64,000 nucleotides of DNA from positions 14,334-78,333 of the forward strand of contig CAZBUJ010000010.1 in the NCBI GenBank assembly GCA_964495075.1. Direction: 5' to 3'. Shown in pieces: positions 34,981 through 49,005 of this stretch. Numbering within the stretch: position 1 is the stretch's first letter; the number at the start of each line of letters is the position of its first letter. The notes beneath the pieces were generated by a model. The model did no database searches and had not been told where the DNA came from. It saw only the letters and a program-made list of their open reading frames with translations. Both the position numbers and the translations under genes were made by a program. Source of the stretch: an uncultured Phycisphaeraceae bacterium. GTDB taxonomy: Bacteria; Planctomycetota; Phycisphaerae; UBA1845.

Positions 34981-35151
34981 ATGGTCAGATGGAAGTACCT
35001 GTCTCTCGGCTCGGTCATCGGGGCCGGCGTGCTCGGATTCCTCCGCGTCGTCGCCAACGAAATCCTCGCCGTCGAAAAGAAACTCCGGCTCCTCGAAGCG
35101 GAGGAAGAAGCACGCCGCGAACGGGCCAGGAAGTGGGGAGAGGCCGCCTGA
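34981..35151 (+). CDS. Small single-pass membrane protein with a charged coiled tail, hypothetical
   Basis: MVRWKYLSLGSVIGAGVLGFLRVVANEILAVEKKLRLLEAEEEARRERARKWGEAA. Codon usage is plausible for this genome. No homology recognised. Confidence 0.35.
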   Translation: MVRWKYLSLGSVIGAGVLGFLRVVANEILAVEKKLRLLEAEEEARRERARKWGEAA

Positions 35152-35306
35152 CCGCTCACGCGGATACGGACCGAACCCCGCACCGCCACGGCCCGAATCG
35201 CCCCGCCGCGCATTGTTGACTTGCCGTTAGGCCCAACTTAGAGTGAATTTATCGGGCCCACGGCAGGGGATGGCCGGTCGGTGGGGCGGCGGAATGGGAG
35301 AGGACT

Positions 35307-36368
35307 ATGCGATCGCATCCGGTTCGATTCTCGAAGATACGCACGCTCGTGGTGGTGTTCGCGGTGCTGGCCATTCTCGGCGGCGCAGGACTCATCGCCC
35401 TCGGCGTCAGGGAAACCCTGCGAAGCGGGCTGACCCCGTCGGGCGGCGTGCCGTTGATCGCGGCCGGCCTGGCGACCATCGCGGTCGCCTTCGCGGCCGT
35501 CGCCATGACCTGGCTCCTGGTGAAAATCGAGTCGCACACCAACCGCCAATACAACCAGCTCATCGACCTGTGCGATCTCATCAAGAACGAGGCGAACGTC
35601 CTCTCCTCCATCGCCCAGAGCAGCCGGATCTCGGAGGCCGTCAAGTCCATCACCGGACGCGAAGAAGAGCGGGAGGCCCTCCGCGCCGCCATCCGCGAAG
35701 ACATTTCCCGCGAGGACTGGGAAGCCGCCCTCTACCTCGTCGATCAGATGGAGCAGCGGTTCGGGTACCACGACGAGGCGGAACGACTGCGCCGTCAGGT
35801 CATTGACGAACGCACCAGCGACATGCGCAACCGGTTGAACGAAGCGCTGGGACGCATCGAAGAGCACTGGGCCGCCTACGAATGGGACCGCGCCGCCCAG
35901 GAAATCCAGCGACTGTTGCGGGCGCTGCCCGACGACAAGCACACCCGACGCCTCCCCGAAGAACACCAGAAACGGCGCGAGGCCCGCAAGCAGGAACTGC
36001 TGGCCGCCTGGCGAGACGCCGTCCGCCCCTCCTCCGCCCAGGAGGACGACATGGACCTCGACAAGGCCATCGCCGTGCTCACCGAACTCGACCCCTATTT
36101 AACGCGGGAAGAAGCCCGCGCCCTGGAAGAGTCGGCCCGCGGCGTGTTCCGGGCCAAGCTGGCCCGGTTCGGCATGCAGTTCGAGCTGGCGGTCAAAGAC
36201 CAGCGATGGCGCCAGGCCCTCGAAATCGGGGTCCAGATCATCGAGGAGTACCCCAATTCCACCATGGCCCAGCAGGTGCGCGAGATGGAAGGGGTGCTCC
36301 GGCAGCGCGCCGGACTGACCGGCGACGTCGAGGTCACCGTCCACCCCGCCCCGGCGTCCGATAACTAG
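35307..36368 (+). CDS. Membrane-anchored (2 TM) helical/TPR-like protein, hypothetical
   Basis: 353 aa. Two N-terminal TM helices followed by about 260 aa of charged helical sequence. Confidence 0.55.
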   Translation: MRSHPVRFSKIRTLVVVFAVLAILGGAGLIALGVRETLRSGLTPSGGVPLIAAGLATIAVAFAAVAMTWLLVKIESHTNRQYNQLIDLCDLIKNEANVLSSIAQSSRISEAVKSITGREEEREALRAAIREDISREDWEAALYLVDQMEQRFGYHDEAERLRRQVIDERTSDMRNRLNEALGRIEEHWAAYEWDRAAQEIQRLLRALPDDKHTRRLPEEHQKRREARKQELLAAWRDAVRPSSAQEDDMDLDKAIAVLTELDPYLTREEARALEESARGVFRAKLARFGMQFELAVKDQRWRQALEIGVQIIEEYPNSTMAQQVREMEGVLRQRAGLTGDVEVTVHPAPASDN

Positions 36369-36605
36369 CCCGGGTGCCCCGCTCCACCCCGTAACGCCCG
36401 CGACCCGCACGGGACGCCCGCCGCGCCGACCACGCATTTACTCTTTAAACCGACCCGATAATCGGCCGATACGCCTGAGACCGGTCCACCGGGAACTGGG
36501 CGTGCCCCCGGCCGGTCCCGTGCGGTCCGAGAAACTTGCCCGACCGTGCTATCGAATTTTACGCTGTGAACTGACGGTTGGGGAACTGAGGTCTCTGGAT
36601 GGCTT

Positions 36606-37988
36606 GTGATGGCGGCTGCAATCCAAGGGGGCCGACCACGCCGAACGCTCGGCCAGTGGATCCGGGCGTCGGTTCTCGGTCTACAATGCAAATCCACCGT
36701 GCTCGTCGTCGCCCTGACGCTCTGCGTGGCGACCGTCGTGGGCGGACTGTTCGTTCACTTCGCCGGACGCCTCACCGCGAAGAACCAGGAACGACACGCC
36801 ACCCAGCTTTGCGCCGGATTGGCCCAACTGGCCGCCGATGCCCTCGCCCAGCGGGACTGGCCGCACCTGCAGCGAGTCGCCAACAAATTCGCCAGCGGTG
36901 ACCCGCTCATCTTCGTCTCCTTCTGCGATGCGCAGGGCCGGTCGTGGGCATCCGCGTCCCGGAACGACCTGCCGATCGACCCGGCCTGGCTCCAGCTCGG
37001 GGAGGACGCCCGCCGAACGGTGGGCCAGCCTCTGCTCCGCTACGAGCATCCGGGCGTCCCGACCTTCCTCGACGTCAGCTACCCCATCAACCGAGCACTG
37101 GCGGCCACCGACGGTGGGCCCAGCCCACTGCTCGGGTACGTGCGAGTCGGCTTCAATGTCGATCCCACGCTGAAGGAGTTCGCGGGGGTGATGGATCTCG
37201 TTTCCGGCATCGCCCTGGTGGTCGTCCTCATCACGATCCCGTTCGCGTTCCTCGTCGTCCGGCAGATCGTGGTGCCGCTCAACGAGCTGTCGCTCACGGC
37301 CGAGAAGCTTGCCCAGGGCGACCGGTCCGCCCGCTCCCGCGTGAGCCGGACCGACGAGATCGGACAACTCGCCCGGTCGTTCAACCACATGGCGGACGAG
37401 ATCGATCGCAACGAAAAGAAGATCACGGCCATGAACGCGGACCTTGAGGAACGGGTCCGCGATCGCACCCGGCAGTTGAAGGAGATGGCAGCCCGCGATC
37501 CGCTCACCGGCCTCTACAACCGGCGCCACGTGGACGAGGTCCTCGCCCGCAGCTTCGCCGAAGCCAAGCGCTACGGGCACCCCCTTTCCTGCCTGATGAT
37601 CGATCTCGACAACTTCAAGGCGGTCAACGACCGGTTCGGCCACCATGCCGGGGACCAGGCGTTGATGCTGGCCGCGGACACCGTTTCGGGCGAGTTGCGG
37701 GCGTCGGACATCGCGGCACGCTTCGGCGGCGACGAATTCGTCGTCCTGCTGCCCCACGCCGAGCAGGAACAGGCGGCCGTGCTGGCCCGGCGGATCGCCG
37801 ACCGGTTCGCGAGCAACATCCGGGCCGCGCTGCCGACGCTCCGTACGCGATTGAGCATCGGAATCGCCAGTCTGGGCGACGGCGACGCGGATCGTCCGGA
37901 GGGCCTGGTACGAGCCGCCGACCGCGCCCTCTACGCCGCCAAGCAGCGCGGGCGCAATCGCATCGAAATCTCGCGAGTCCCCGTATAA
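36606..37988 (+). CDS. Diguanylate cyclase (TM sensor, HAMP, GGDEF) with an RxxD I-site
   Basis: HAMP (LNELSLTAEKLAQGD...IGQLARSFNHMADEI) and an active site RFGGDEFVVLL preceded by RASD five residues upstream. Confidence 0.85.
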   Translation: MMAAAIQGGRPRRTLGQWIRASVLGLQCKSTVLVVALTLCVATVVGGLFVHFAGRLTAKNQERHATQLCAGLAQLAADALAQRDWPHLQRVANKFASGDPLIFVSFCDAQGRSWASASRNDLPIDPAWLQLGEDARRTVGQPLLRYEHPGVPTFLDVSYPINRALAATDGGPSPLLGYVRVGFNVDPTLKEFAGVMDLVSGIALVVVLITIPFAFLVVRQIVVPLNELSLTAEKLAQGDRSARSRVSRTDEIGQLARSFNHMADEIDRNEKKITAMNADLEERVRDRTRQLKEMAARDPLTGLYNRRHVDEVLARSFAEAKRYGHPLSCLMIDLDNFKAVNDRFGHHAGDQALMLAADTVSGELRASDIAARFGGDEFVVLLPHAEQEQAAVLARRIADRFASNIRAALPTLRTRLSIGIASLGDGDADRPEGLVRAADRALYAAKQRGRNRIEISRVPV

Positions 37989-38151
37989 TTCTGTAAGCAC
38001 GCCCGCGAATACACGGGTGTCGGAGCGGTGGCGCCCGACGCATATGCGGTTCTGCGACGCCCTTTCTAATCGCAGCCGCGGACGTTGTGTGTTATGGTTT
38101 CAGTGGGCGGGCGAACCGCCCCCCAGGACTCCCGAATGGCGGTGATCGACG

Positions 38152-38562
38152 ATGTGGACGGAAGTCGGAAAATTCGTCGGCGGCAAGGTCCTGACGGCCG
38201 TACTGGTCGTCGGCGTGTTTGCCAGTGGATTTTGGTTCTACAGGCATCCGGAGCAGCTCCAGGCCATCTGGGGCGTGCTGAAATCGGTGCTCGCCTGGCT
38301 GGGATTCGTGATTGTCCTGCCCTGGGCCCTCTTTTTCGTGGTGGCCTGGGTCCGGCGGTTCGACAGCAACGCCGCCGCCGCCGCCATGCTGATTGCGTAT
38401 CTGCTGCTGGACGTGCTGGCCGCCCTGTACCTCGCCGGCTGGCACGTGAGCGGGGCCCTGACTTGGACCGTGCTGGTCCTTGGCTTCCTTGCAGCAGGAG
38501 TTTATAATTTCCTGGCCTGTGAGACGATCGACAACCGGCTCGAATCGTCCGAGGGCCTGTAA
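38152..38562 (+). CDS. Four-TM small membrane protein, hypothetical; first gene of the ESCRT-III/Vps4-like cluster
   Basis: 136 aa with four clear hydrophobic helices. It ends 22 nt upstream of the kinase ORF. Confidence 0.5.
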   Translation: MWTEVGKFVGGKVLTAVLVVGVFASGFWFYRHPEQLQAIWGVLKSVLAWLGFVIVLPWALFFVVAWVRRFDSNAAAAAMLIAYLLLDVLAALYLAGWHVSGALTWTVLVLGFLAAGVYNFLACETIDNRLESSEGL

Positions 38563-38625
38563 CGCCCGCGGTGGGAACGACGGGTGGACAGGGCCGAGCC
38601 GGCACAGAATAGGGAGGACCTGGCG

Positions 38626-39645
38626 ATGGTCAGCCTGAAAGCAGGCGACCGAATCAGCAACTACCTGCTCGAGGAGCTGGTGGGGACGGGCAGCTTCGCC
38701 CAGGTGTGGAGAGCCCGCCATCATACCCTTGACAAGGTCGTCGCGATCAAAGTCCTGACCGACCAGCAGTACGTTCGGAACTTCCGGCAGGAAGGGGTGG
38801 TCGTCCACGGACTGCGGCACCCCAACATCGTGCGGGTCGAGGACATTGACGCGTACGATGATCCGCCGTATCTGATCATGGAACTTGTGGACGGGCCCTC
38901 CTTGCGGAGGGTGATCGATGCCCACCCGGACGGATTGCCCATCCCCGCGTGCCAGACGGTGTTTGGCGGGTTGTGCAAGGCCCTTTCGTTTGCCCACGAG
39001 AACGGTTTGATCCATCGGGACATCAAGCCGGCCAACATTCTGCTCAACCATCGCGAAGACGATCTGACCACGCTGACGGAGCAGGCGGTCAAGGTGGGCG
39101 ATTTCGGCCTGGGCCGCACCGGCGGCGTGACCACCGCATCCATCATGCAGTCGGGCAGCCTTCAGACGGAAGAGGGCCGAAGCATCGCCGGCACCCTCGC
39201 GTACATGTCGCCCGAGCAGAAGGAGGGCGGGGCCGTGGACGCGCGGAGTGACCTCTATGCGTGCGGCATTGTCCTGTTCGAGATGCTGACGGGCAGTCGA
39301 CCGGCCGGAGTGGAGATCCCCAGTTCCGTGCGTTCGGACGTCCCTCCGGTCCTGGACGAGGCCTTTCGTCGCTGCTACACGCGGCTGGATCGCCGTGTCG
39401 CCTCCGCCGGTGACCTGCTCGACATCGTGCGGCGTACCGGTCCGTCGGGGCCGGCGGCGGCCGGCGGGGGGCTGACGTGCCCGTCGTGCCACGGGCGCGT
39501 CGCCGGTGGAGACCAGTTCTGCACCCACTGCGGATACCAGTTGGTCGAGTCGGTGCCGCGCTGTCCGTCGTGCCACGCGTTTGTCAATCGCACTGACCGG
39601 TACTGCATTTTCTGTGGGACGCAGTTGCAGAGAACCGGCGAGTAG
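38626..39645 (+). CDS. Ser/Thr protein kinase with a C-terminal double zinc ribbon
   Basis: GTGSFAQVW, VAIKVL, HRDIKPANILL, DFGLG and TLAYMSPEQ. C-terminus CPSCHGRVAGGDQFCTHCG...CPSCHAFVNRTDRYCIFCG. The ATG at 38626 is preceded by GGGAGGA. The maximal ORF starts with GTG at 38584. Confidence 0.85.
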   Translation: MVSLKAGDRISNYLLEELVGTGSFAQVWRARHHTLDKVVAIKVLTDQQYVRNFRQEGVVVHGLRHPNIVRVEDIDAYDDPPYLIMELVDGPSLRRVIDAHPDGLPIPACQTVFGGLCKALSFAHENGLIHRDIKPANILLNHREDDLTTLTEQAVKVGDFGLGRTGGVTTASIMQSGSLQTEEGRSIAGTLAYMSPEQKEGGAVDARSDLYACGIVLFEMLTGSRPAGVEIPSSVRSDVPPVLDEAFRRCYTRLDRRVASAGDLLDIVRRTGPSGPAAAGGGLTCPSCHGRVAGGDQFCTHCGYQLVESVPRCPSCHAFVNRTDRYCIFCGTQLQRTGE

Positions 39646-39662
39646 CATCGGGATCGAGTGAG

Positions 39663-39920
39663 ATGGCGTCGTGGATCTTCATCATCTTCGCGATCGTCCT
39701 CGTGGCCGGGCTCGTGCTCACCGCGGTGCTCATGATCATGTTCATCGTTCATAGCGCCAAGCGGTCGTTGTCGGGACAATCGCCGCGCCAGCCGGCCGGC
39801 CCCGCCCGACGCGTTGGTGACCGACGGGCGAATGTTGACCGGATTTGTCCGAATGATCATTGTAGGCATCCGAACCGGTCGGATGCCCTCTATTGCGGCC
39901 AGTGCGGACGGCGGTTGTAA
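39663..39920 (+). CDS. Small single-TM protein with a C-terminal zinc ribbon
   Basis: 85 aa. TM helix WIFIIFAIVLVAGLVLTAVLMIMFIV, then CPNDHCRHPNRSDALYCGQCG. Confidence 0.5.
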   Translation: MASWIFIIFAIVLVAGLVLTAVLMIMFIVHSAKRSLSGQSPRQPAGPARRVGDRRANVDRICPNDHCRHPNRSDALYCGQCGRRL

Positions 39921-39923
39921 ACG

Positions 39924-41396
39924 TTGACCGATTCATCGAGCGGACAATCCGGCCGGCTGAACGCGGACGCGGCGGAGACCCTTCGGGTCGAGACGGAGTT
40001 TCTGTCCGGCGTGGAGGCCAACCTCGAGGCCGCCAAGGGCGGGCTGTTGCCCGGCGATCGCTGGCGTGCCGTGCGGGACGACGAGAGCGACGCCTTGCGG
40101 GCGATGATGGCCTCCCGGCGGATGTACGACCGCGAGTTGCTCAAGCAGCTCCCGCACAACCGGCGGATCGTGGTCCAGGGCTCGCAGCGTCGCTGGCTCC
40201 TGTTCCGCCGTCCGACCGAGGTGGCCATTGCCACCGTGGTGGCACCGTTTGAGCACTTGCTGACGCCCGAGTCGACCACCGCACCCCCGGTCACGCTCGG
40301 CGAGTTGACCGCCCACGTGCGCGGGCTGGTGGGCGAGGCCAAGGTGCCGCACGTTGTCGGCGTCTGTTCGCCCAGCGGATTCGCCGACGACGTGCGGGAG
40401 ACGCGCCTGGACATGCCGAACGTCACCATCGTGCTGGTCGAGCCGCGGGCGGGCGGCGGGTGGACCATCGCGACGCCCGGCGGAACCCAGGTCTCGGAGA
40501 ACATCCGAAAGCTGTACGACCCCGAGGCGATTAGCCAGAAGGTGACCCGGGCGCTGCGGGAGATCGAACACCGCCGGGTCGACCTGTTGACGGGCGGGCT
40601 GTCGGCCGCGTCGATCGCCGCGGGCACCGGGCTGCCCGAAGGAGTGGTCATGTTGGCCTTCAAGAAGGTGGCGGGCGAAGACACCGAGCTGCGCGTGACC
40701 CGCCGCTCGGGACATGTGGTGCTCTACCGCGGAGCGCCATCACGGTCGCAGGAGAGTAGTGCCATGAACGTCGTCGATCGCATCCGCGCACTGTTTTCAT
40801 CGGAAGGCGACGAAGCCCAGAAGATCAACGTGCTGGCCGAGCGACGGGCCAACCTCGCCCAACGCCGCGATCGGCTCTACGAGGACATCGGCAAGCTGGA
40901 AAAACGCGAGGCCGAGCTGCTCAATGAAGGACGGACGTCCAAATCGCAGGTCACCCGCCGGCGGCTGGCCGCCCAGCTGGGGCAGCTTCGCAAGGACATC
41001 GCGCGGCAGAACACGACCGCCAACATGCTGAATCAGCAGATCAACATCCTCAGCACCGACATCCACAACCTCACGCTGATCCAGCAAGGCCAGATGGCCA
41101 GCCTGCCCAATACCGAGGAACTGACCGAGAACGCGGTCAAAGCCGAGGAAATGCTCGAAACCCTCCGGGCCGACGCGGACATGGTCGCCGGCCTGGAAAC
41201 AGGACTGGCCGACGTGGCGACCAGCGACGAAGAACTGGCCATTCTCAAGGAGTTCGACGAGCCGGAGGCACCGAGGCAAACGGCCAGCGCCGACAGCGCG
41301 GCGGAACGCGAGGTGATGCGCGAGTTCGACCAACCGCAAGAAGAGGCGAGGCCAGAGAAGAACGCAGGGAAGCAACGGGCCGACCCGGAGGCGTGA
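39924..41396 (+). CDS. Fusion protein: unknown N-terminal domain (about 270 aa, possibly ending in a winged helix) plus a C-terminal ESCRT-III/Snf7-like helical domain
   Basis: The region from about aa 275 (MNVVDRIRALFSSEGDEAQKINVLAERRANLAQRRDRLYEDIGKLEKREAELLNEG...LRKDIARQNTTANMLNQQINILSTDIHNLTLIQQG...TENAVKAEEMLETLRADADMVAGLE) follows the Snf7 helix pattern, with a basic hairpin and then an acidic tail. The tail carries the repeated motifs LAILKEFDEPE and REVMREFDQPQ. Confidence 0.6.
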   Translation: MTDSSSGQSGRLNADAAETLRVETEFLSGVEANLEAAKGGLLPGDRWRAVRDDESDALRAMMASRRMYDRELLKQLPHNRRIVVQGSQRRWLLFRRPTEVAIATVVAPFEHLLTPESTTAPPVTLGELTAHVRGLVGEAKVPHVVGVCSPSGFADDVRETRLDMPNVTIVLVEPRAGGGWTIATPGGTQVSENIRKLYDPEAISQKVTRALREIEHRRVDLLTGGLSAASIAAGTGLPEGVVMLAFKKVAGEDTELRVTRRSGHVVLYRGAPSRSQESSAMNVVDRIRALFSSEGDEAQKINVLAERRANLAQRRDRLYEDIGKLEKREAELLNEGRTSKSQVTRRRLAAQLGQLRKDIARQNTTANMLNQQINILSTDIHNLTLIQQGQMASLPNTEELTENAVKAEEMLETLRADADMVAGLETGLADVATSDEELAILKEFDEPEAPRQTASADSAAEREVMREFDQPQEEARPEKNAGKQRADPEA

Positions 41397-41441
41397 GCGA
41401 TCCGTCCCGCAAGCCCGACGAGACACCGCGAAGGTACAACG

Positions 41442-42050
41442 ATGGACTTCTTCGACTGGCTGACCAAGCGAAAGAAACCGCTGTCCGAAATGTCGCGAGC
41501 CGAACTCCGGCGGCAGGAGCTGCTGCTGGAGAAAGACCGCACGCAACTGCTCAACAAGGTCACCAAGCTGGCCAAGGCCAAGCAGGAGCTGTTCGAACGC
41601 GGGGCCGGTGAGAAGACCCCCGAAGTCCGGCGCATCCTGGCCCAGGAGTTCGAACTGAAGACCACCGAGCAGCTCATGCTCTCCCGGCAACTCAATATCC
41701 GCAGCAAGGAGATGATGACCGTCTCCCGGCTGCGGATGCTCCGCGAGAACGCCGAGCGGGCGGCCAGTACCGGCGGCAAGCTCGGCCTGATCAACGAAAA
41801 GGACATGCTGCGCCTCGGACGCCTCATCGAGAACGACTCGATCAAGGCCGAAGCGTACCAGGAGCGTCTCGACGAGATCCTCTCGATGGGGGCGGAAGTG
41901 GACGAAGGGGCCGCCGGGCTGTCCGAGGCCGGTCAGTCCGTGCTCGACATCTGGGACAAGATGGACGCCGGCGCCATCGCGGACTCGCGGGAAGCGTTTG
42001 AGGAAGCGGATCGACGCGTCCGGGAGCAGGCCAGTCCGGCCGAGGAGTAG
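41442..42050 (+). CDS. ESCRT-III/Snf7 (PspA-superfamily)-like protein
   Basis: 202 aa. N-terminus MDFFDWLTKRKKP, a basic helical hairpin in the first half, and an acidic C-terminal half. The length and charge asymmetry are typical of ESCRT-III subunits. Confidence 0.65.
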   Translation: MDFFDWLTKRKKPLSEMSRAELRRQELLLEKDRTQLLNKVTKLAKAKQELFERGAGEKTPEVRRILAQEFELKTTEQLMLSRQLNIRSKEMMTVSRLRMLRENAERAASTGGKLGLINEKDMLRLGRLIENDSIKAEAYQERLDEILSMGAEVDEGAAGLSEAGQSVLDIWDKMDAGAIADSREAFEEADRRVREQASPAEE

Positions 42051-42056
42051 CCCATC

Positions 42057-42257
42057 ATGGCGGGATCGCAACCACTGCGTCGATCCGTCAACAACCGTGT
42101 CATCGCCGGGGTGGTGGGAGGCGTCGCCGAGCACTTCGGCCTGGACGCCACCCTGTTGAGGGTGGTCTACGTGCTGGCGAGTGTGCTGTCGGCGGCGTTC
42201 CCGGGTATGCTGGTCTACCTCATCTGCTGGTTGATCATCCCCGAGCGCGAGTATTAG
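42057..42257 (+). CDS. PspC-domain membrane protein
   Basis: 66 aa. LRRSVNNRVIAGVVGGVAEHFGLDATLLRVVYVLASVLSAAFPGMLVYLICWLIIPE is a canonical PspC domain. Confidence 0.8.
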   Translation: MAGSQPLRRSVNNRVIAGVVGGVAEHFGLDATLLRVVYVLASVLSAAFPGMLVYLICWLIIPEREY

Positions 42258-42322
42258 GCAACCAGACCGTCGTGCAGAAACCGGGGAGCCCCGGTCGTCC
42301 GCGCGAAACGCGAGCGGAACTC

Positions 42323-42922
42323 ATGGCACTATTCAAGTCAGCGGAAGAGCGGCGGATTGAACGCGACATCAAGATCCGGCAGGGCATCCGCCGGATCGAG
42401 AAGGCCATTCGCGAGCAGAACAAGTTCGCGGACGAGTTCATCAAGAACGCCCAGCGGGCCAGGAAAATGGGCGACAACGCCCAGTACAAGTTCATCCGCA
42501 ACTCGCTCAAGAAAACAGCCGCCGTCAAGCGGGCCCTCGAGCGGCAGTTGCTCTCGGTCAAAAACGCCCTGCTCATCAAGCGGCAGGCCGAGGCGTCCGC
42601 CGACTTCGCCCAGTGCATGGGCACGATGGCCACCGAGATCGGCAAGCTGTTTGGCGAGACCGACCTGCTCAAGACCCAGGCCGATTGGGAGAAGGCCATG
42701 GTCCAGTCGCAGTCGATGGAGGAACGGATGTCGATGTTCCTCGACACCATCGAGGACATCGCCGCCGAAGACACCGAGGCCGCTGAACTGGTCACCGACG
42801 AAGAGATCGACCGCATGATCGAGGCCGAACAGGAAGCCGAGCACCAGAAAGAGCTGGGAAAACTCGCGAACCTGCGAGCGGAGCTGGACTCCTTGAAAGG
42901 CGAAGGCGAGAAGCAGAAGTGA
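42323..42922 (+). CDS. ESCRT-III (Vps2/CHMP1-2-like) protein with a C-terminal amphipathic MIM-like helix
   Basis: 199 aa from the ATG at 42323 (MALFKSAEERRIERDIKIRQGIRRIEKAIREQNKF...). The order basic N-half, acidic C-half (DTIEDIAAEDTEAAELVTDEEIDRMIEAEQEAE), then terminal KLANLRAELDSLKG parallels CHMP-type subunits. The maximal ORF starts with GTG at 42272. Confidence 0.7.
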   Translation: MALFKSAEERRIERDIKIRQGIRRIEKAIREQNKFADEFIKNAQRARKMGDNAQYKFIRNSLKKTAAVKRALERQLLSVKNALLIKRQAEASADFAQCMGTMATEIGKLFGETDLLKTQADWEKAMVQSQSMEERMSMFLDTIEDIAAEDTEAAELVTDEEIDRMIEAEQEAEHQKELGKLANLRAELDSLKGEGEKQK

Positions 42923-42927
42923 GCGGT

Positions 42928-43128
42928 AATGACAAATTACAAATTACTAATTACTAATGAACATGGCGGCAGAGCGGGTATCGGCAAATGGATATACGAA
43001 TAATTGGATGCAAGGGCCGGGAAGCGAGATGTGCCGGTGTGCGCCCTCCTAATGGGCCATACACAACAATTGACAATAGCTCCGTTGCGTCGCCTCATTC
43101 GTAATTAGTAATTGGTAATTAGTAATTC
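42928..43128. repeat. AT-rich imperfect inverted repeat (about 33-bp arms, each about four tandem heptamers of AATTACN / GTAATTN) flanking a core of about 135 bp
   Basis: The left arm at 42928-42960 reads aatgacAAATTACAAATTACTAATTACTAATGA. The right arm at 43096-43128 reads TCATTCGTAATTAGTAATTGGTAATTAGTAATTc. About 29 of 33 positions are complementary by my hand alignment. The repeat ends 11 nt before the Vps4-like ATG. Confidence 0.7.
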
Positions 43129-43139
43129 ACCTGCGTCCC

Positions 43140-44258
43140 ATGACCGTGTCCTTTTCAACCTTCGAGCGTCTCAAGACCAAGGGCGTCTGCGCCTACAAGA
43201 AGGGCGAGTACAACTCGGCCAAATCGTACCTCATCGAGGCCGCCGAATGCATGGTCGAGCTGGCGGAGAAGGCGCCATCGGCCGAAGTGCGCCGTCAGCG
43301 CGAGGAGATTGCGGCCGAGCTGATCGACCTGGCTCGCGATTGCGAACGATACAAGACCTCGCCACCCCGGCGGCGGCAGGCCGCACGGGAACGCGACGAC
43401 GACAGCGGCCGCGACGCCTCCGACTGGATCCTGAAGGAGAAGCCCGACTTCGGCTTCGACCATATCGCCGGCCTCGATGACGTCAAAGAGGAAATCCGGC
43501 TCAAGATGATCTACCCGTTCAACCACCCGGAACTCGCCCGGAAGTACGGGATCGGGGTCGGCGGCGGCGTGCTCCTCTACGGGCCGCCCGGCACGGGCAA
43601 AACCATGATGGCCAAGGCCGTCGCCCACGAGGTCGAGGCGACCTTCTTCGTCATCAGCCCCGCCCAGGTGCTGAGCAAATGGGTCGGCGAGGCGGAGCAG
43701 AACATCCAGAAACTCTTCGACGCCGCCACGAGTGAGGCGAAATCAGTCATCTTCATCGACGAGATCGAGGCCCTCGTCCCGCGGCGTAAGTCGGACGGGT
43801 CGAGCGTCATGCAACGCGTGGTCCCCCAGATCCTCCAGGAGCTGGAAGGATTCGACCGGAAGGGGGACCGGGCCCTATTATTTGTCGGAGCCACCAACAA
43901 GCCGTGGATGCTGGACGAGGCCATGCTGCGGCCCGGTCGGTTCGACACGCGAATCTACCTGGGCTTGCCCGACCCGCCGGCGTTGTACCGGCTATTGGAG
44001 ATCTACTTCGGCGACCGCCCGCTGTCCGACGACGTCGACTTCAGCCGCCTGTGCGACGGGCTCGACGGCTACAGCGGCGCCGACATCAAGAACATCGCGC
44101 AACAGGCGGCGGCCATCCCGTTTATGGAATCGGTGGCCGGAGCGGAGCCGCGCCCGATCGCGATGAAGGACATCGAAAAGGTGATCGAAAGTACCCCGCC
44201 TTCGGTCAAGCAATCGGACCTCGTGCGGTTCGAGAAGTTCGACAGCACGGGTCGATGA
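43140..44258 (+). CDS. MIT-domain AAA+ ATPase, Vps4-like (meiotic-clade AAA)
   Basis: 372 aa. An N-terminal three-helix, MIT-like region (KGVCAYKKGEYNSAKSYLIEAAECMVELAEKAPSAEVRRQREEIAAELIDLARDCERYK). Walker A GPPGTGKT, Walker B IFIDEIE, second region of homology ATNKPWMLDEAMLRPGRFD. The C-terminus STPPSVKQSDLVRFEKFDSTG resembles the Vps4/katanin/spastin tail. Confidence 0.85.
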   Translation: MTVSFSTFERLKTKGVCAYKKGEYNSAKSYLIEAAECMVELAEKAPSAEVRRQREEIAAELIDLARDCERYKTSPPRRRQAARERDDDSGRDASDWILKEKPDFGFDHIAGLDDVKEEIRLKMIYPFNHPELARKYGIGVGGGVLLYGPPGTGKTMMAKAVAHEVEATFFVISPAQVLSKWVGEAEQNIQKLFDAATSEAKSVIFIDEIEALVPRRKSDGSSVMQRVVPQILQELEGFDRKGDRALLFVGATNKPWMLDEAMLRPGRFDTRIYLGLPDPPALYRLLEIYFGDRPLSDDVDFSRLCDGLDGYSGADIKNIAQQAAAIPFMESVAGAEPRPIAMKDIEKVIESTPPSVKQSDLVRFEKFDSTGR

Positions 44259-44342
44259 CCCGGGGCGACACCGCAGACGAAAGGAAGCGCTTCGGCGGCG
44301 ACCAAGGTGACCGAACGGGCGACGGCGGCCGGAGGTAAGACG

Positions 44343-46100
44343 ATGACAGCCAGGTTCGATGCCAAGCGCCTGTTCAACGACGTGGACGCCGTGGCGGCCG
44401 TGGTGCCGGCATCGGAGGTCTTCTCGCTACTGACGCGTGCGCTTGATCTTCCGCCCGCGTGGGCGGCCCTCGTCGGCGACGTCCAAGGGGGGCAGCGGTT
44501 CTTCGCGCCCGGTGAGGTCGTACCGCGCGAAAACGCCGATGAGCTGCTCCTCGTACGCGTCACGCCGATCGACCTCCGCGTCCAGGAATCCGGCCTCGTC
44601 TCCCGCGACAAGTACCAGTTCGATGCGGAAGTCCGCGTCCGGGTCGCGCTCATCGCCGATCGCGGGGAACTCAGCTCGTTTCAGAACACCGCGCTGGGCA
44701 GCAAGCGGACGGCCACCAGCGACACGTTGGCCCAACTCCTCCGTCCCGACATCCGGTCCGCCCTCATCGACGTGGTCGGCGAGTCGAACGCGGAGACACT
44801 GATCACCGATGCCGACCGCCACACCTGGTCCGACCGGCTGAACGCGGCACTCAAGCCGGTCTGTTTCCGCGCCGGCCTGGCCGTCGACGCGGCCCCGTCG
44901 GTGCGCTTCGATTCGCCGACGTTCCGGCAGGTGCGCGTGTCGCAGGAACAGACGGCCCGCCATCAGGCCGAGCACCAGGCACGCCGACAACTGGAGCAGG
45001 CCATCGAAGCGGCACAGGTCGAACACCTCGACCACCTCGAGAGCCTGCTGGCCCGGTTGAAGGACGCCGCCGACTCCTCACCGGACGTGGAACTGCCGGA
45101 GCTCATGCGTACCTTCTCGCAACGAGAGCGCGGCGAGATGTACGAGGCGCTGTTCGCGGCGGATTCGGTGCAGGCCACACGGTGGATCGTGGTGGCCACC
45201 AGCGACGGGCTTTACTGGTTCGACCCGGCATCGCCGGGCGAACCGGCCCGCGCCGTCGACGTCGTGCCGGAGGTCGGCGGGATTCGAAGCGTGCACTGTC
45301 TGCGTTCGTCCGCGAGTGATCAGCGACTGTTGCTCGGCGCCGCCCGTGGCGTGTACGAGTTCGTGCCCGAGGGCACGGATCCGGCTGCGATCTATGTCGC
45401 CGATCGGCAGCGCGAGGTCCGCGGCGGGTTCAACGCGGTCGCGCTGGCCGGCCGCCAACTCTGGGCGTCGCACTCGGAACTCGGCCTGGTCCGCTGGGAT
45501 CGCACGGCGCCGGACCGACCGGAGCCCGTTCTCGAATCGCAAACCCAAGCCGCCCGCGCGGTGCGCGGCGTGCTGTTCCACGAAGGGAAGATCTGGGTCT
45601 CGCTCGACGACCGGGTCGCGTCGCTGCCCGCCGATGCTCCCGGGTCCGAGCCCGATTGGTATACCGGCAGCGAGGCGACGATCACGGCCCTGGCCGTCAC
45701 GCCGGGCGGCGTGCTGGGCGGCACCGCGGACGGCCGGATCCTGCACTGGCGGTTCGACGAACCCCGGGCCCCGCAGACGCTGCACACCGGAAACCGGCGT
45801 TCGGTCGAGTCGATCCACGTGCTCAGCACCGGCGGCGTCGATCGCCTCTTCTTCACCGACACGTCGCTGGCCGTCCACGCCCGGGTGCGGGGCGATTCGT
45901 TTACGTGCCGTTACGAGGCGGGCGGCCAGACGTTGCGGCGGGTGGAGGTCATGCCGGACCTGATCGTGGCCACCAATGACGTGCGCGATCGCCTGGTCTG
46001 CTGGTCGCCGTCCAGACCCGACCAGCCCCGCGCGGTCATCCCCGTCGCCCGGCTGACCCACCATTCCGTACAGGATGTCTGCCTCGTGCCGACGGCGTGA
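44343..46100 (+). CDS. SPFH/Band-7-like N-domain, coiled coil, and C-terminal beta-propeller-like domain protein
   Basis: The N-domain pattern (LLLVRVTPIDLRVQ...FDAEVRVRVALI...LAQLLRPDIRSALIDVVGESNAETLIT...AGLAVDAAPSVRFDSPTF) resembles SPFH. It is followed by a Gln/Glu/Arg-rich coiled coil and about 300 aa of repetitive beta-rich sequence. An alternative GTG start lies at 44307. Confidence 0.55.
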   Translation: MTARFDAKRLFNDVDAVAAVVPASEVFSLLTRALDLPPAWAALVGDVQGGQRFFAPGEVVPRENADELLLVRVTPIDLRVQESGLVSRDKYQFDAEVRVRVALIADRGELSSFQNTALGSKRTATSDTLAQLLRPDIRSALIDVVGESNAETLITDADRHTWSDRLNAALKPVCFRAGLAVDAAPSVRFDSPTFRQVRVSQEQTARHQAEHQARRQLEQAIEAAQVEHLDHLESLLARLKDAADSSPDVELPELMRTFSQRERGEMYEALFAADSVQATRWIVVATSDGLYWFDPASPGEPARAVDVVPEVGGIRSVHCLRSSASDQRLLLGAARGVYEFVPEGTDPAAIYVADRQREVRGGFNAVALAGRQLWASHSELGLVRWDRTAPDRPEPVLESQTQAARAVRGVLFHEGKIWVSLDDRVASLPADAPGSEPDWYTGSEATITALAVTPGGVLGGTADGRILHWRFDEPRAPQTLHTGNRRSVESIHVLSTGGVDRLFFTDTSLAVHARVRGDSFTCRYEAGGQTLRRVEVMPDLIVATNDVRDRLVCWSPSRPDQPRAVIPVARLTHHSVQDVCLVPTA

Positions 46101-46336
46101 GCCGCCGGCCGCCACCGTTCAGTGCCATCGCCCAACTGCCGCCCTGCTCTTGGGGCCGGATTCGGGGGTTATGCCCTCACGCCTCGGCTCGGCCACCAGA
46201 TCGCCGTCGTGCCTCCCCACGATACCCAAACCCTCCGTGTCACCCGACCCGTCAATAATGGTGCGCCAGAGAACGTTACCCTCCGCATCGAACCGGGCGA
46301 GCCGGAGCTTCCGCCGGTCCGAACTGCCGCCGGCGG

Positions 46337-46531
46337 TTAGCCGGTGACGGCAAACCCGCCGTCGGCGGTGGCCGTCACGGTATTCACGACATCCGTCTCG
46401 CTACCTCCACAGGTCAACGCGTACACCGCACACTCGTCCGCCGTCGCGACCATCGTCTGGGACAACACACGCAGCAGATCCGTGTCACCATCCTGGTCAT
46501 CTGTCGGTCCTCCATTCTCGAGATTCGCCAT
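46337..46531 (-). CDS. Possible small ORF (64 aa), acidic N-half and Cys/Thr/Gly-rich C-half
   Basis: MANLENGGPTDDQDGDTDLLRVLSQTMVATADECAVYALTCGGSETDVVNTVTATADGGFAVTG. Third-position GC is about 70% by hand count, compatible with coding. No homology recognised. The longer 144-aa ORF upstream looks non-coding. Confidence 0.25.
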   Translation of the reverse strand: MANLENGGPTDDQDGDTDLLRVLSQTMVATADECAVYALTCGGSETDVVNTVTATADGGFAVTG

Positions 46532-46864
46532 ACGGTTTCGGCGGGAAGATCGGGTTGCAGAAGTGCCCTCCCGTGGGGGCCATGCGCCGACTCCCACCAC
46601 TACTGCGGGGCAAACCGCACGCAGAGACCCTTCGCCTGGCACTTGGACCCGTGTGATCCGAGCGACAGCCGCAGACCTCCCGGACGCACGCTCTCTCCCC
46701 AATTCACTGATACGTCGGGTGCGGCCAGCGCTCCCGCGACCGCCGGAGTCAATTGCGCACACGTTGAGCAACAGTCGGACTGAACGCCCGCTCGCGGCGG
46801 TGCGTCATCAAGCCGTGCTGTCGACAGCCGGTATGAAGCGATGATCCAGAATCAGGTTACGCGA

Positions 46865-48340: not shown

Positions 48341-48904
48341 CTATGCGCACCCGCCGCAACCCTCGCCCGCCTCGCGCTCCGCGTCCGGAAGTAGCCCCAG
48401 TCGCTCGACCTGGCCCGTGGAGAGCCGATTCCGCGCCACTTCGTCCGCGTCGTTCGCCTCGTGGCAGTGCGGACATTCGCACCCGTTGGCCAACCCTGCC
48501 TCATCCGTGGCGGCCAGCTCGCCGCACCAGTCGCAACGGAAGTAGATCGCATCATACGCGGCATGGTCGTCCACCAGCGAACCCAGCACGTCGATCTCTT
48601 CCCCGCAATGCGGACACGCCTGTTCCGTACCGGCGGCCGCCGCGTCGAAACGGGCCTGCTCATCACAGAACGGACAAATCAGGAAGATCATGCCCGGTTC
48701 GTCCTCCGCGGCCCCGATCGACGCGTCGCCGGACACGTCCGCACCATCCGCGCTCTCCCGGCTTGCCAGCCATCGCTCGGTCTCGGTCGGCAAGGCGATG
48801 AAGGTGTGGCACTGCGAACACTCCACCGTCGTACCGGCCGCGATTCCCGGGTATCGGCCGACCGCGCCGCACGCCGAGCAAGCCATCTCGATCTCGTCCG
48901 CCAT
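48341..48904 (-). CDS. Acidic protein with four zinc-ribbon (CxxC...CxxC) modules, hypothetical
   Basis: From the ATG at 48904: CSACG...CSQCH, CPFCD...CPHCG, CDWCG...CPHCH, and a terminal CGGC. Confidence 0.55.
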   Translation of the reverse strand: MADEIEMACSACGAVGRYPGIAAGTTVECSQCHTFIALPTETERWLASRESADGADVSGDASIGAAEDEPGMIFLICPFCDEQARFDAAAAGTEQACPHCGEEIDVLGSLVDDHAAYDAIYFRCDWCGELAATDEAGLANGCECPHCHEANDADEVARNRLSTGQVERLGLLPDAEREAGEGCGGCA

Positions 48905-49005
48905 TGCATCGCTCCCTGCCACATTATCCGCGCCGGCACGCCGCCGGGCCGGCCACGACGATTGTCGCGGTCCTCCCGTTCCCATACAATCCCGCACGAA
49001 GAGGA

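Follow-up and report, generated by a model that had tools for sequence, protein, structure and literature searches.

Several systems in which ESCRT-III-superfamily proteins act at membranes have been described. In archaea, the Cdv machinery encodes several ESCRT-III-like paralogues (CdvB) together with CdvC, an AAA ATPase of a single cassette with a MIT-fold N-terminal domain and a Vps4_C helix, whilst the Asgard and eukaryotic ESCRT-III proteins split into an A-type (Vps2/24/46, CHMP1-3) and a B-type (Vps20/32/60, CHMP4/6). In bacteria, the Psp (PspA-PspB-PspC-PspF) and Lia (LiaI-LiaH) systems place a helical effector of the same superfamily (PMC11237479) beside a small membrane protein with a PspC domain. 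Reviews hold that bacteria have no clear Vps4 homologue and usually one PspA-type ESCRT-III (PMC7615534; PMC7619361), with the Vps4-like ATPase stated to be one that "appears absent in bacteria" (PMC7619361). Here, we analyse a window of 64,000 nucleotides (nt) from an uncultured Phycisphaeraceae bacterium (GenBank assembly GCA_964495075.1, contig CAZBUJ010000010.1, positions 14,334 to 78,333 of the forward strand), and in particular a gene for a protein of 202 residues (P202) that is directly followed by a gene for a PspC-domain protein of 66 residues (PspC66). P202 is most readily interpreted as a bacterial protein of the ESCRT-III superfamily that has diverged far and belongs with Snf7/CHMP, not with PspA/Vipp1, and we consider it fairly probable that the locus encodes three ESCRT-III-like subunits, P202 among them, along with a Vps4-style ATPase. 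All evidence is computational and, taken together, moderately strong; P202 and PspC66 apparently constitute one subunit-plus-accessory pair of a bacterial ESCRT-III/Vps4 variant not described before, and full-text searches that paired Phycisphaerae or Planctomycetota with the terms ESCRT, Vps4 or CdvC brought up no account of this cluster.

The assignment of P202 was made by comparison of family profiles. Against a reference profile of six ESCRT-III proteins (each matching Pfam Snf7 with E-values from 1e-58 to 2e-16), the P202 family profile reached an hhalign score of 37.9 (probability 61%, E 8e-5, 120 columns), which was reproduced in a second run (score 37.2, probability 57%, E 1e-4). The reversed profile scored 17.5 and 30 column shuffles scored at most 17.3, whilst the profile of PspA and Vipp1 sequences (Pfam-validated) gave only 12.6–16.7 and hence remained at background level. 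The P202/ESCRT-III alignment is in register: the starts of helix alpha1 coincide, an invariant glycine (Gly54) lies on the tip of the hairpin and the segment INEKDMLRLGRLIE of P202 is aligned onto the alpha4 motif MDIDKVDELM of ESCRT-III. Furthermore, Snf7 is the Pfam family matched most often among 56 diverse members of the P202 family, albeit with weak support (3 of the 56, best E 2.5e-4). These results agree with the description of the protein as Snf7-like in an initial, sequence-only reading of this DNA. The check proposed there, a comparison of hmmscan scores for Snf7 and PspA_IM30, was uninformative: as neither family is matched, the assignment rests on weaker but controlled evidence.

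The structural features of P202 point in the same direction. The AlphaFold2 (AF2) model (predicted local distance difference test score, pLDDT, 78; predicted template modelling score 0.71) exhibits a short N-terminal helix, followed by helices at residues 19-56, 60-110, 119-152, 162-175 and 182-197; as modelled, this order of a long hairpin (19-56/60-110) and shorter helices thereafter is the ESCRT-III layout from alpha0 to alpha5/6, in which a hairpin of alpha1-alpha2 (approximately 70 Å in ESCRT-III) precedes the shorter helices alpha3-alpha5(6). The first half of the protein is basic (net charge +9, pI 10.4) and the second half acidic (-13, pI 4.3), as had been noted, and the amphipathic and basic N-terminal motif MDFFDWLTKRKK is maintained across the family with the consensus M-x-[FL]-[FL]-[DE]-W-L-T-K-R-K-K. 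This N-terminus, likened to those of CHMP/Snf7 proteins before, resembles the CHMP arrangement together with the charge polarity, and a membrane-inserting role is putative. In terms of distribution, a word-indexed search returned 1217 homologues, every named source of which belongs to the Phycisphaerae or Planctomycetota, and an exhaustive profile search across 1.84 billion representatives yielded no more than 175 clusters of the P202 family, so that going by source names the family is apparently narrow and confined to Planctomycetota. A profile search started from distant P202-like members alone yielded further unannotated Planctomycetota proteins and no bridge to a Pfam-labelled family.

P202 is flanked by two further helical proteins of this kind. 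The downstream gene, also regarded as Snf7-like before, encodes a protein of 199 residues with its true start at ATG 42323 (MALFKS...) and not at GTG 42272, where the mechanically derived open reading frame (ORF) for 216 residues begins, because the N-terminus is conserved from the ATG onwards and the public gene call agrees. This protein matches the A-type proteins CHMP3/2A/1B from residue 1, with MALFKS placed on MGLFGK (hhalign score 34.4, E 1.6e-4), as opposed to CHMP4B/Snf7/CHMP6 (score 15.7, no match; controls at most 17.4). The upstream gene encodes a protein of 490 residues (P490), whose C-terminal 216 residues (P490C) are homologous to P202 (hhalign E 4.4e-4); many distant members of the P202 family match the hidden Markov models (HMMs) of both. 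P490C shows the reverse preference to the 199-aa protein, with a score of 30.6 over 154 columns against the B-type (CHMP4/6) versus 14.7 against the A-type (CHMP1-3), controls in these subgroup comparisons not exceeding 18.5. At profile level the division thus appears clean, with the 199-aa protein A-type-like and P490C and P202 B-type-like, and with moderate strength it mirrors the dichotomy of ESCRT-IIIA and ESCRT-IIIB in Asgard archaea and eukaryotes. Basic/acidic polarity is common to all three paralogues (+13/-16 for the 199-aa protein). The amphipathic C-terminal helix of the 199-aa protein, KLAxLRAELxxLK, is almost invariant, and its LRAELxxLK portion agrees with the type 1 MIT-interacting motif (MIM1, LxxRLxxL[KR]) at all three hydrophobic positions and at the basic residue that closes the motif, albeit with the arginine displaced; as a lead, this MIM1-like helix is a candidate ligand for a MIT domain. 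The N-terminal domain of P490 (39924-40739) has no match in PDB or Pfam. Faint MarR/TrmB/helix-turn-helix matches near residues 205-260 suggest a winged helix there, a type of module with which ESCRT-III is also partnered in the case of ESCRT-II and CdvB. In the tail of P490 (41250-41396), an ILKEF[DE] motif and the very last residues (...DPEA[ST]) are conserved, and a proline-rich stretch is present.

The most telling neighbour of the gene pair, passed over in the sequence-only reading, is the ATPase encoded two genes downstream. It possesses a single AAA cassette (Pfam AAA, 1.9e-41) and a C-terminal helix that passes the threshold of Pfam Vps4_C (30.1 bits, cut-off 21.3), with approximately 40% of its orthologues holding a precomputed PF09336 match; among the NCBIfam models, archaeal CdvC scores highest (residues 13-367, 246.7 bits), though far short of the 650 bits required of an equivalog. 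The sequence of pore loop 1, SKWVGEAE, is of the Vps4 type. The N-terminal domain, modelled with AF2 using 24 orthologues, is a three-helix bundle (pLDDT 87), and in a Foldseek search of PDB at least 30 of its top 50 matches were MIT domains (template modelling score, TM, 0.75-0.87; root mean square deviation, rmsd, 1.1-3.3; probability about 1.0). These include VPS4B (4u7y), VPS4A (1yxr, TM 0.83), yeast Vps4 (5fvl) and S. solfataricus Vps4 (2v6y, rmsd 1.6) as well as katanin p60 (6gzc, TM 0.85, rmsd 1.1), MITD1, NRBF2, calpain-7 and spartin. At the level of sequence profiles, the domain found only a chitin-synthase MIT domain in PDB (E=0.15), and its hhalign scores against four MIT domains lay inside the shuffled range. 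The combination of MIT fold, AAA cassette and Vps4_C helix is Vps4-like.

Both members of the P202/PspC66 pair are found as claimed, with the ATG of the smaller gene beginning 7 nt past the TAG stop of the larger one, i.e. after a spacer of 6 nt (CCCATC). The exact products of 202, 66, 199, 372 and 490 residues are called genes on the 105-kb NCBI contig, the GC content at third codon positions (GC3) is 0.85-0.87 across all genes of the cluster, and dozens of genomes contain orthologues of P202 and PspC66 in this very location; on account of the public gene calls, the GC3 values and these positionally recurring orthologues, the two ORFs lie far beyond chance. A Shine-Dalgarno-like hexamer, GAGGAG, lies inside the 3' end of the P202 gene at a distance of 9 nt from the ATG of PspC66, as read from the sequence. 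Translational coupling of the two genes, which had been proposed, is thus plausible in this genome, where PspC66 is probably co-translated with P202, but it is not conserved: in relatives the gap between P202 and PspC genes ranges from -4 to 570 nt, which rules out tight coupling as a conserved design.

With PspC66 itself, the domain assignment is firm. The protein matches Pfam PspC (PF04024) with E=1.7e-22 and 79.4 bits (cut-off 25) over profile positions 2-57 of 58, and is accordingly the bare PspC domain it was taken for: a basic N-terminus, a single hydrophobic helix at about residues 35-61 and an end at EREY, 6 residues past the helix. It falls below the cut-offs of both enterobacterial PspC equivalogs (TIGR02978, 45.3 bits, cut-off 104; NF007973, 23.3 bits, cut-off 136), covering positions 3-60 of 121 only. 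In Yersinia and E. coli, PspC is known to bind PspA by way of its C-terminal region, and because PspC66 ends so shortly after its transmembrane helix it is without this region; a partnership with the helical protein, suggested by analogy with PspA and PspC, is hence not simply transferable. One genome per species was scanned, giving 176 species with a P202 relative, and the best 80 loci of these were taken for synteny. When present, the PspC gene always lies between the P202 gene and the 199-aa gene, both of them ESCRT-III-like by profile comparison; the proposal that PspC links the two branches of the superfamily was an over-reading and holds only weakly, as gene adjacency. By HMM search of six-frame translations, PspC is present in 49 and missing from 22 (31%) of the 71 loci holding both flanking genes, and in some of the latter the leftover gap between the P202 and 199-aa genes is just 12-150 nt. 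The variable gap, these absences, the equivalog scores below cut-off and the lack of anything beyond the transmembrane helix mark PspC as an accessory that the system can do without, and its most plausible role is that of a small tether or sensor at the membrane. Stand-alone PspC domains are common according to Popp et al. 2022, where Planctomycetes and Snf7 are unmentioned (PMC9239133).

The presence of a true PspC domain directly downstream of P202, with its 6-nt gap and the Shine-Dalgarno-like hexamer ahead of it, raises the alternative that the locus is a Psp-type envelope stress module, in which P202 would be an analogue of PspA/LiaH, PspC would recruit or restrain it and the ATPase would recycle the coat, with no role in division or scission. 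PspA and ESCRT-III do belong to one superfamily, and the cluster also encodes an SPFH protein, links between SPFH proteins and PspA being known in B. subtilis (cited in PMC10936438). However, the P202 profile does not rise above background with PspA/Vipp1, so that the effector is not PspA_IM30-like, and the PspC protein is dispensable, variably spaced and devoid of the PspA-binding part. None of the classical operon partners PspA_IM30, PspB and PspF was found among the 11 cluster products in Pfam and NCBIfam scans, nor is there a LiaRS-type regulator; the AAA partner is of the MIT type instead of a sigma-54 activator, and three paralogous subunits with a MIT-AAA ATPase represent the pattern of ESCRT and not of Psp. 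A Psp-like stress module is thus possible in physiological terms and unsupported by family membership, and we regard it as unlikely, though by analogy an inner-membrane role is likely to be common to this cluster and the Psp/Lia systems.

A number of results weigh against the interpretation of the cluster as an ESCRT-III/Vps4-like system. The reference profiles are small (six sequences) and the HH probabilities amount to 50-61%. With hmmscan, P202 matches no Snf7, PspA_IM30 or other Pfam family at E<=1; the 199-aa protein, though aligned with Pfam Snf7 (PF03357) over its full length and in register, scores 10.2 bits (E=0.62, cut-off 27.3); and neither this protein nor P490C has a HMMER-level match to Snf7 or any solved ESCRT-III. 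HMMER profiles built from close or diverse P202 relatives, from the 199-aa protein and from P202 with P490C retrieved no ESCRT-III or PspA from all PDB sequences. In a Foldseek search against PDB, the P202 model has no match at E<=1e-3, CdvB2 filaments ranking 18th (E=0.38) amid BAR domains and designed helical bundles. We were unable to identify a MIM in P202, whose conserved tail AF[DE]EADRRVRE fits no known one. In case of the ATPase, its first 75 residues have no Pfam MIT match, and the MIT assignment is one of fold, with Foldseek E-values of 0.09-1, as is to be expected because the domain is helical and comprises 75 residues. The AAA core scores higher against Cdc48 D2 (188 bits) than against yeast Vps4 (166 bits), and the second region of homology/arginine-finger region reads RPGRFD, as in Cdc48/PAN, and not RRRF as in Vps4; the likeness to Vps4/CdvC is thus one of architecture, and orthology is putative at most. 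Two loci with distant P202-like proteins (L081, 10001-10546; L082, 10001-10597; 181-198 residues, about 27% identity) lie in other Planctomycetota in a conserved context of ubiA, the P202-like gene, a HolA-like gene of about 350 codons and mutL, with no Vps4-like, PspC or 199-aa gene inside 10 kb. As these distant members have no Vps4-like neighbour, the helical family is broader than the ATPase-linked cluster. Finally, we infer polymerisation, membrane binding and contact between MIT domain and MIM, and likewise any contact between PspC66 and P202, the last also counting on this side.

Such results would suit a second alternative, namely that P202 is a lineage-specific coiled-coil or helical-bundle scaffold of no ESCRT-III ancestry and the ATPase a Cdc48-like unfoldase with an unrelated substrate. 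P202 has no HMMER match in Pfam, NCBIfam (noise only) or PDB, and its top Foldseek matches are designed bundles and BAR/eisosome proteins, none of them significant and the search as such non-diagnostic; the modest HH probabilities and the AAA core slightly closer to Cdc48 D2 fit as well, and the profile match and AF2 layout might be explained by generic long-helix composition. On the last point the controls argue in the other direction: reversed and shuffled profiles, which preserve composition, reach at most half the score of the real profile, and the register is kept from alpha1 to alpha4. Moreover, each of the three paralogues matches one ESCRT-III subgroup specifically, the N-termini are CHMP-like (MDFFDWLTKRKK in P202; MALFKS versus MGLFGK in the 199-aa protein) with fitting charge polarity, and a MIT-fold domain on the ATPase is hard to explain otherwise. 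We therefore judge a mere scaffold to be improbable, more so than a Psp-type module.

The ESCRT-III-like genes and the ATPase gene are part of a larger block (Table 1) that is colinear and same-strand in 80 loci from different species; the frequencies of the individual genes were obtained by tblastn with the window proteins over these 80 loci, many of which are incomplete. A colinear cluster is conserved across the Phycisphaerae in at least 70 species genomes. Mean column identity of P202 (76% in the homologue alignment) and of the 199-aa protein (84%) is well above the conservation of the kinase, GGDEF and SPFH genes.

Table 1. Features of the cluster in the window, in order of position, with the number of synteny loci in which each gene was found.
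Feature	Position	Strand	Loci (of 80)	Basis or remark
353-aa protein, two N-terminal transmembrane helices and helical-repeat (TPR-like) body	35307..36368	+	37	First gene of the block; no significant Pfam match
460-aa HAMP-GGDEF-type membrane protein	36606..37988	+	50	Judged from an RxGGDEF-type motif in the translation
136-aa polytopic membrane protein	38152..38562	+	68	ORF, hydrophobic sequence
Ser/Thr protein kinase, double zinc ribbon at its C-terminus	38584..39645	+	71	Pkinase 1.4e-39, DZR/Zn_Ribbon
85-aa protein, transmembrane helix and zinc ribbon	39663..39920	+	21	Variable member; weak Zn_Ribbon_1/DZR
P490, N-terminal domain of ~270 residues and C-terminal ESCRT-III-like domain (~nt 40740-41396)	39924..41396	+	77	hhalign
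P202, 202 aa	41442..42050	+	80	ORF starting MDFFDWLTKRKKP; TAG stop ends at 42050
GAGGAG hexamer, Shine-Dalgarno-like	42042..42047	+		Inside 3' end of P202 gene; putative role
PspC66, 66-aa stand-alone PspC-domain membrane protein	42057..42257	+	53	ATG start at 42057; Pfam PspC
199-aa ESCRT-III-like paralogue (P216; A-type, CHMP1-3-like)	42323..42922	+	73	MALFKS N-terminus, MIM1-like C-terminal helix
AT-rich spacer of 217 nt between 199-aa and ATPase genes	42923..43139			In a window of 65% GC
372-aa Vps4/CdvC-style ATPase	43140..44258	+	56	MIT-fold N-terminal domain (residues 5-72), charged linker, AAA, Vps4_C helix
597-aa protein, N-terminal SPFH/Band-7 domain and long unmatched C-terminal region	44307..46100	+	44	Band_7 E=4.6e-7, 30.5 bits (cut-off 23.6)

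On either side, the window holds housekeeping genes: lysyl-tRNA synthetase, a MacB-type ABC transporter, glutamate dehydrogenase and a Na+/H+ exchanger. Least probable by far is a system of defence against phages or of abortive infection, in which the kinase and the AAA ATPase would be the sensors and the helical proteins, acting on membranes, the effectors. Membrane-disrupting effectors are common among defence systems, the ATPase matches the PADLOC IetA models (118.6 bits) and NCBIfam IteA (E 3.5e-31) and the kinase the PD-T4-6/mad6 models, but these are generic AAA and kinase-domain matches, weaker than those to CdvC, PAN or Cdc48. PADLOC returned no match, and PHROGs no meaningful one, for P202, PspC66, the 199-aa protein, P490 or the SPFH protein. 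Defence islands are typically patchy, whereas many species share this cluster in colinear order and single copy, with identities of 70-90% and between housekeeping genes; on the grounds of synteny, conservation and flanks, a mobile or defence island was rejected.

Some further observations concern the periphery of the cluster. The SPFH protein contains about 350 C-terminal residues without family match, and identity among its orthologues is 26-58%, far below that of the helical subunits. Depending on the species, the 199-aa and ATPase genes lie as close as 12 nt or over 3 kb apart (eight loci), and since the gap reaches such a length, extra genes lie between the two in many genomes. Just past the cluster, a zinc-ribbon protein of 218 residues (48341-48997, minus strand) shows sub-threshold similarity to TackOD1 (26.2 bits, cut-off 32), the "Thaumarchaeal output domain 1", and to Anti-TRAP. 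One metagenome-assembled genome labelled "Alphaproteobacteria bacterium" (JANQQE010000024.1) carries the full Phycisphaerae-type cluster on a 558-kb contig, with P202 77% identical; an error in labelling or binning of the assembly is a more probable explanation than transfer.

Within the window, the spacer ahead of the ATPase gene contains an imperfect inverted repeat of 33 nt, the arms of which (42928-42960 and 43095-43127) are 88% complementary and each consist of three TAATTAC/GTAATTA heptads. The 12-mer TAATTAGTAATT occurs 6 times in the spacer and nowhere else in the window (1 mismatch allowed; 0 expected). The spacer sequence is absent from all 82 related loci, and an Rfam search over 35000-46600, spacer included, found nothing; the spacer may represent a small insertion or else an array of operators.

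Comparison with the systems described at the outset reveals where this cluster agrees with them and where it departs. With archaeal Cdv it shares several ESCRT-III-like paralogues beside a one-cassette AAA ATPase with MIT-fold N-terminal domain and Vps4_C helix, and CdvC is the top NCBIfam model of that ATPase. In contrast to Cdv, the host is a bacterium and the similarity lies far under family thresholds (no Snf7 match in Pfam; CdvC model well short of its cut-off); no CdvA was recognised, the RRRF-type arginines of the ATPase are replaced, one subunit is fused to an N-terminal domain of 270 residues, and the partners are PspC, SPFH, Ser/Thr kinase and GGDEF proteins. With the Asgard and eukaryotic proteins the paralogues share the A-type/B-type division, the CHMP-like N-termini, the basic core and acidic tail and, as a candidate feature, the MIM1-like helix on the A-type-like subunit, whereas the probabilities are modest here and ESCRT-I/II, ubiquitin or Bro1 components are lacking. 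This extreme divergence could result from ancient separation or from fast evolution after transfer. Vps4-like AAA ATPases with MIT and C-terminal oligomerisation domains were reported by Ravi et al. 2024 (mSystems) from several bacterial lineages as acquisitions from archaea, at loci where snf7 was "displaced" by a TPR-6TM gene (PMC11237479); set beside these by description only, the present locus differs in that three cryptic ESCRT-III-like genes accompany the ATPase, and ESCRT-III-like genes invisible to Pfam may be the reason why such loci read as lacking Snf7. Finally, an SPFH/Band-7 protein in a cluster with ESCRT-III-superfamily proteins is also seen in PspA-SPFH pairs (B. subtilis YdjI with PspA) and in archaeal ESCRT loci, a link drawn by Makarova et al. 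2024 (PMC10936438), though here the protein has 597 residues with a large uncharacterised C-terminal region and its gene follows that of the ATPase.

In the ESCRT-III/Vps4-like system that we favour, P202 would sit on the cytoplasmic face of the inner membrane by means of its amphipathic and basic N-terminal motif and the basic alpha1-alpha2 hairpin, and would co-polymerise with the C-terminal domain of its paralogue P490, the N-terminal domain of which may serve as adaptor or nucleator. The CHMP1-3-like 199-aa subunit would then enter the polymer, where its MIM1-like C-terminal helix could recruit the MIT domain of the ATPase, and extraction of subunits by the ATPase would lead to polymer turnover and membrane remodelling. 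PspC66, probably co-expressed with P202 in this genome, might act as an optional small tether to the membrane or as a local sensor of stress or curvature for the polymer, with the SPFH protein, the kinase and the GGDEF protein contributing to site organisation or regulation.

The cellular role of such a machine can only be assigned tentatively. FtsZ is absent from the host lineage as it is from Sulfolobales (PMC6952346); Planctomycetes are without FtsZ, and Phycisphaerae nonetheless use binary fission. Membrane constriction or scission in this FtsZ-less fission is possible, and envelope repair or maintenance equally so, whilst vesicle or invagination formation, or another function, appears somewhat more doubtful. 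The strongest version, according to which Phycisphaerae possess a bona fide ESCRT-III/Vps4-type machine of A-type-like and B-type-like subunits and a MIT-AAA ATPase, with PspC and SPFH partners and control by kinase and cyclic di-GMP, that constricts or cuts the cytoplasmic membrane at division, as a counterpart of Cdv, is one we presently hold to be unlikely. Our restraint towards both this version and the mechanistic reading as a whole stems from the level of the HH probabilities and from the identification of the MIT domain by fold.

The cluster is of high interest since the claim runs counter to what current reviews say outright: three recent syntheses agree on this point, and to all of them a set of three ESCRT-III-like paralogues with a MIT-AAA-Vps4_C ATPase, present throughout a bacterial class, would be an exception. 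A smaller point is that a stand-alone PspC domain would be recruitable by the Snf7-like side of the superfamily, merely as an optional accessory. The finding also bears on whether ESCRT-III remodelling driven by Vps4 originated in archaea only, was transferred or is older. For the Phycisphaerae, whose FtsZ-independent fission is without a known driver, the cluster supplies concrete and testable candidates.

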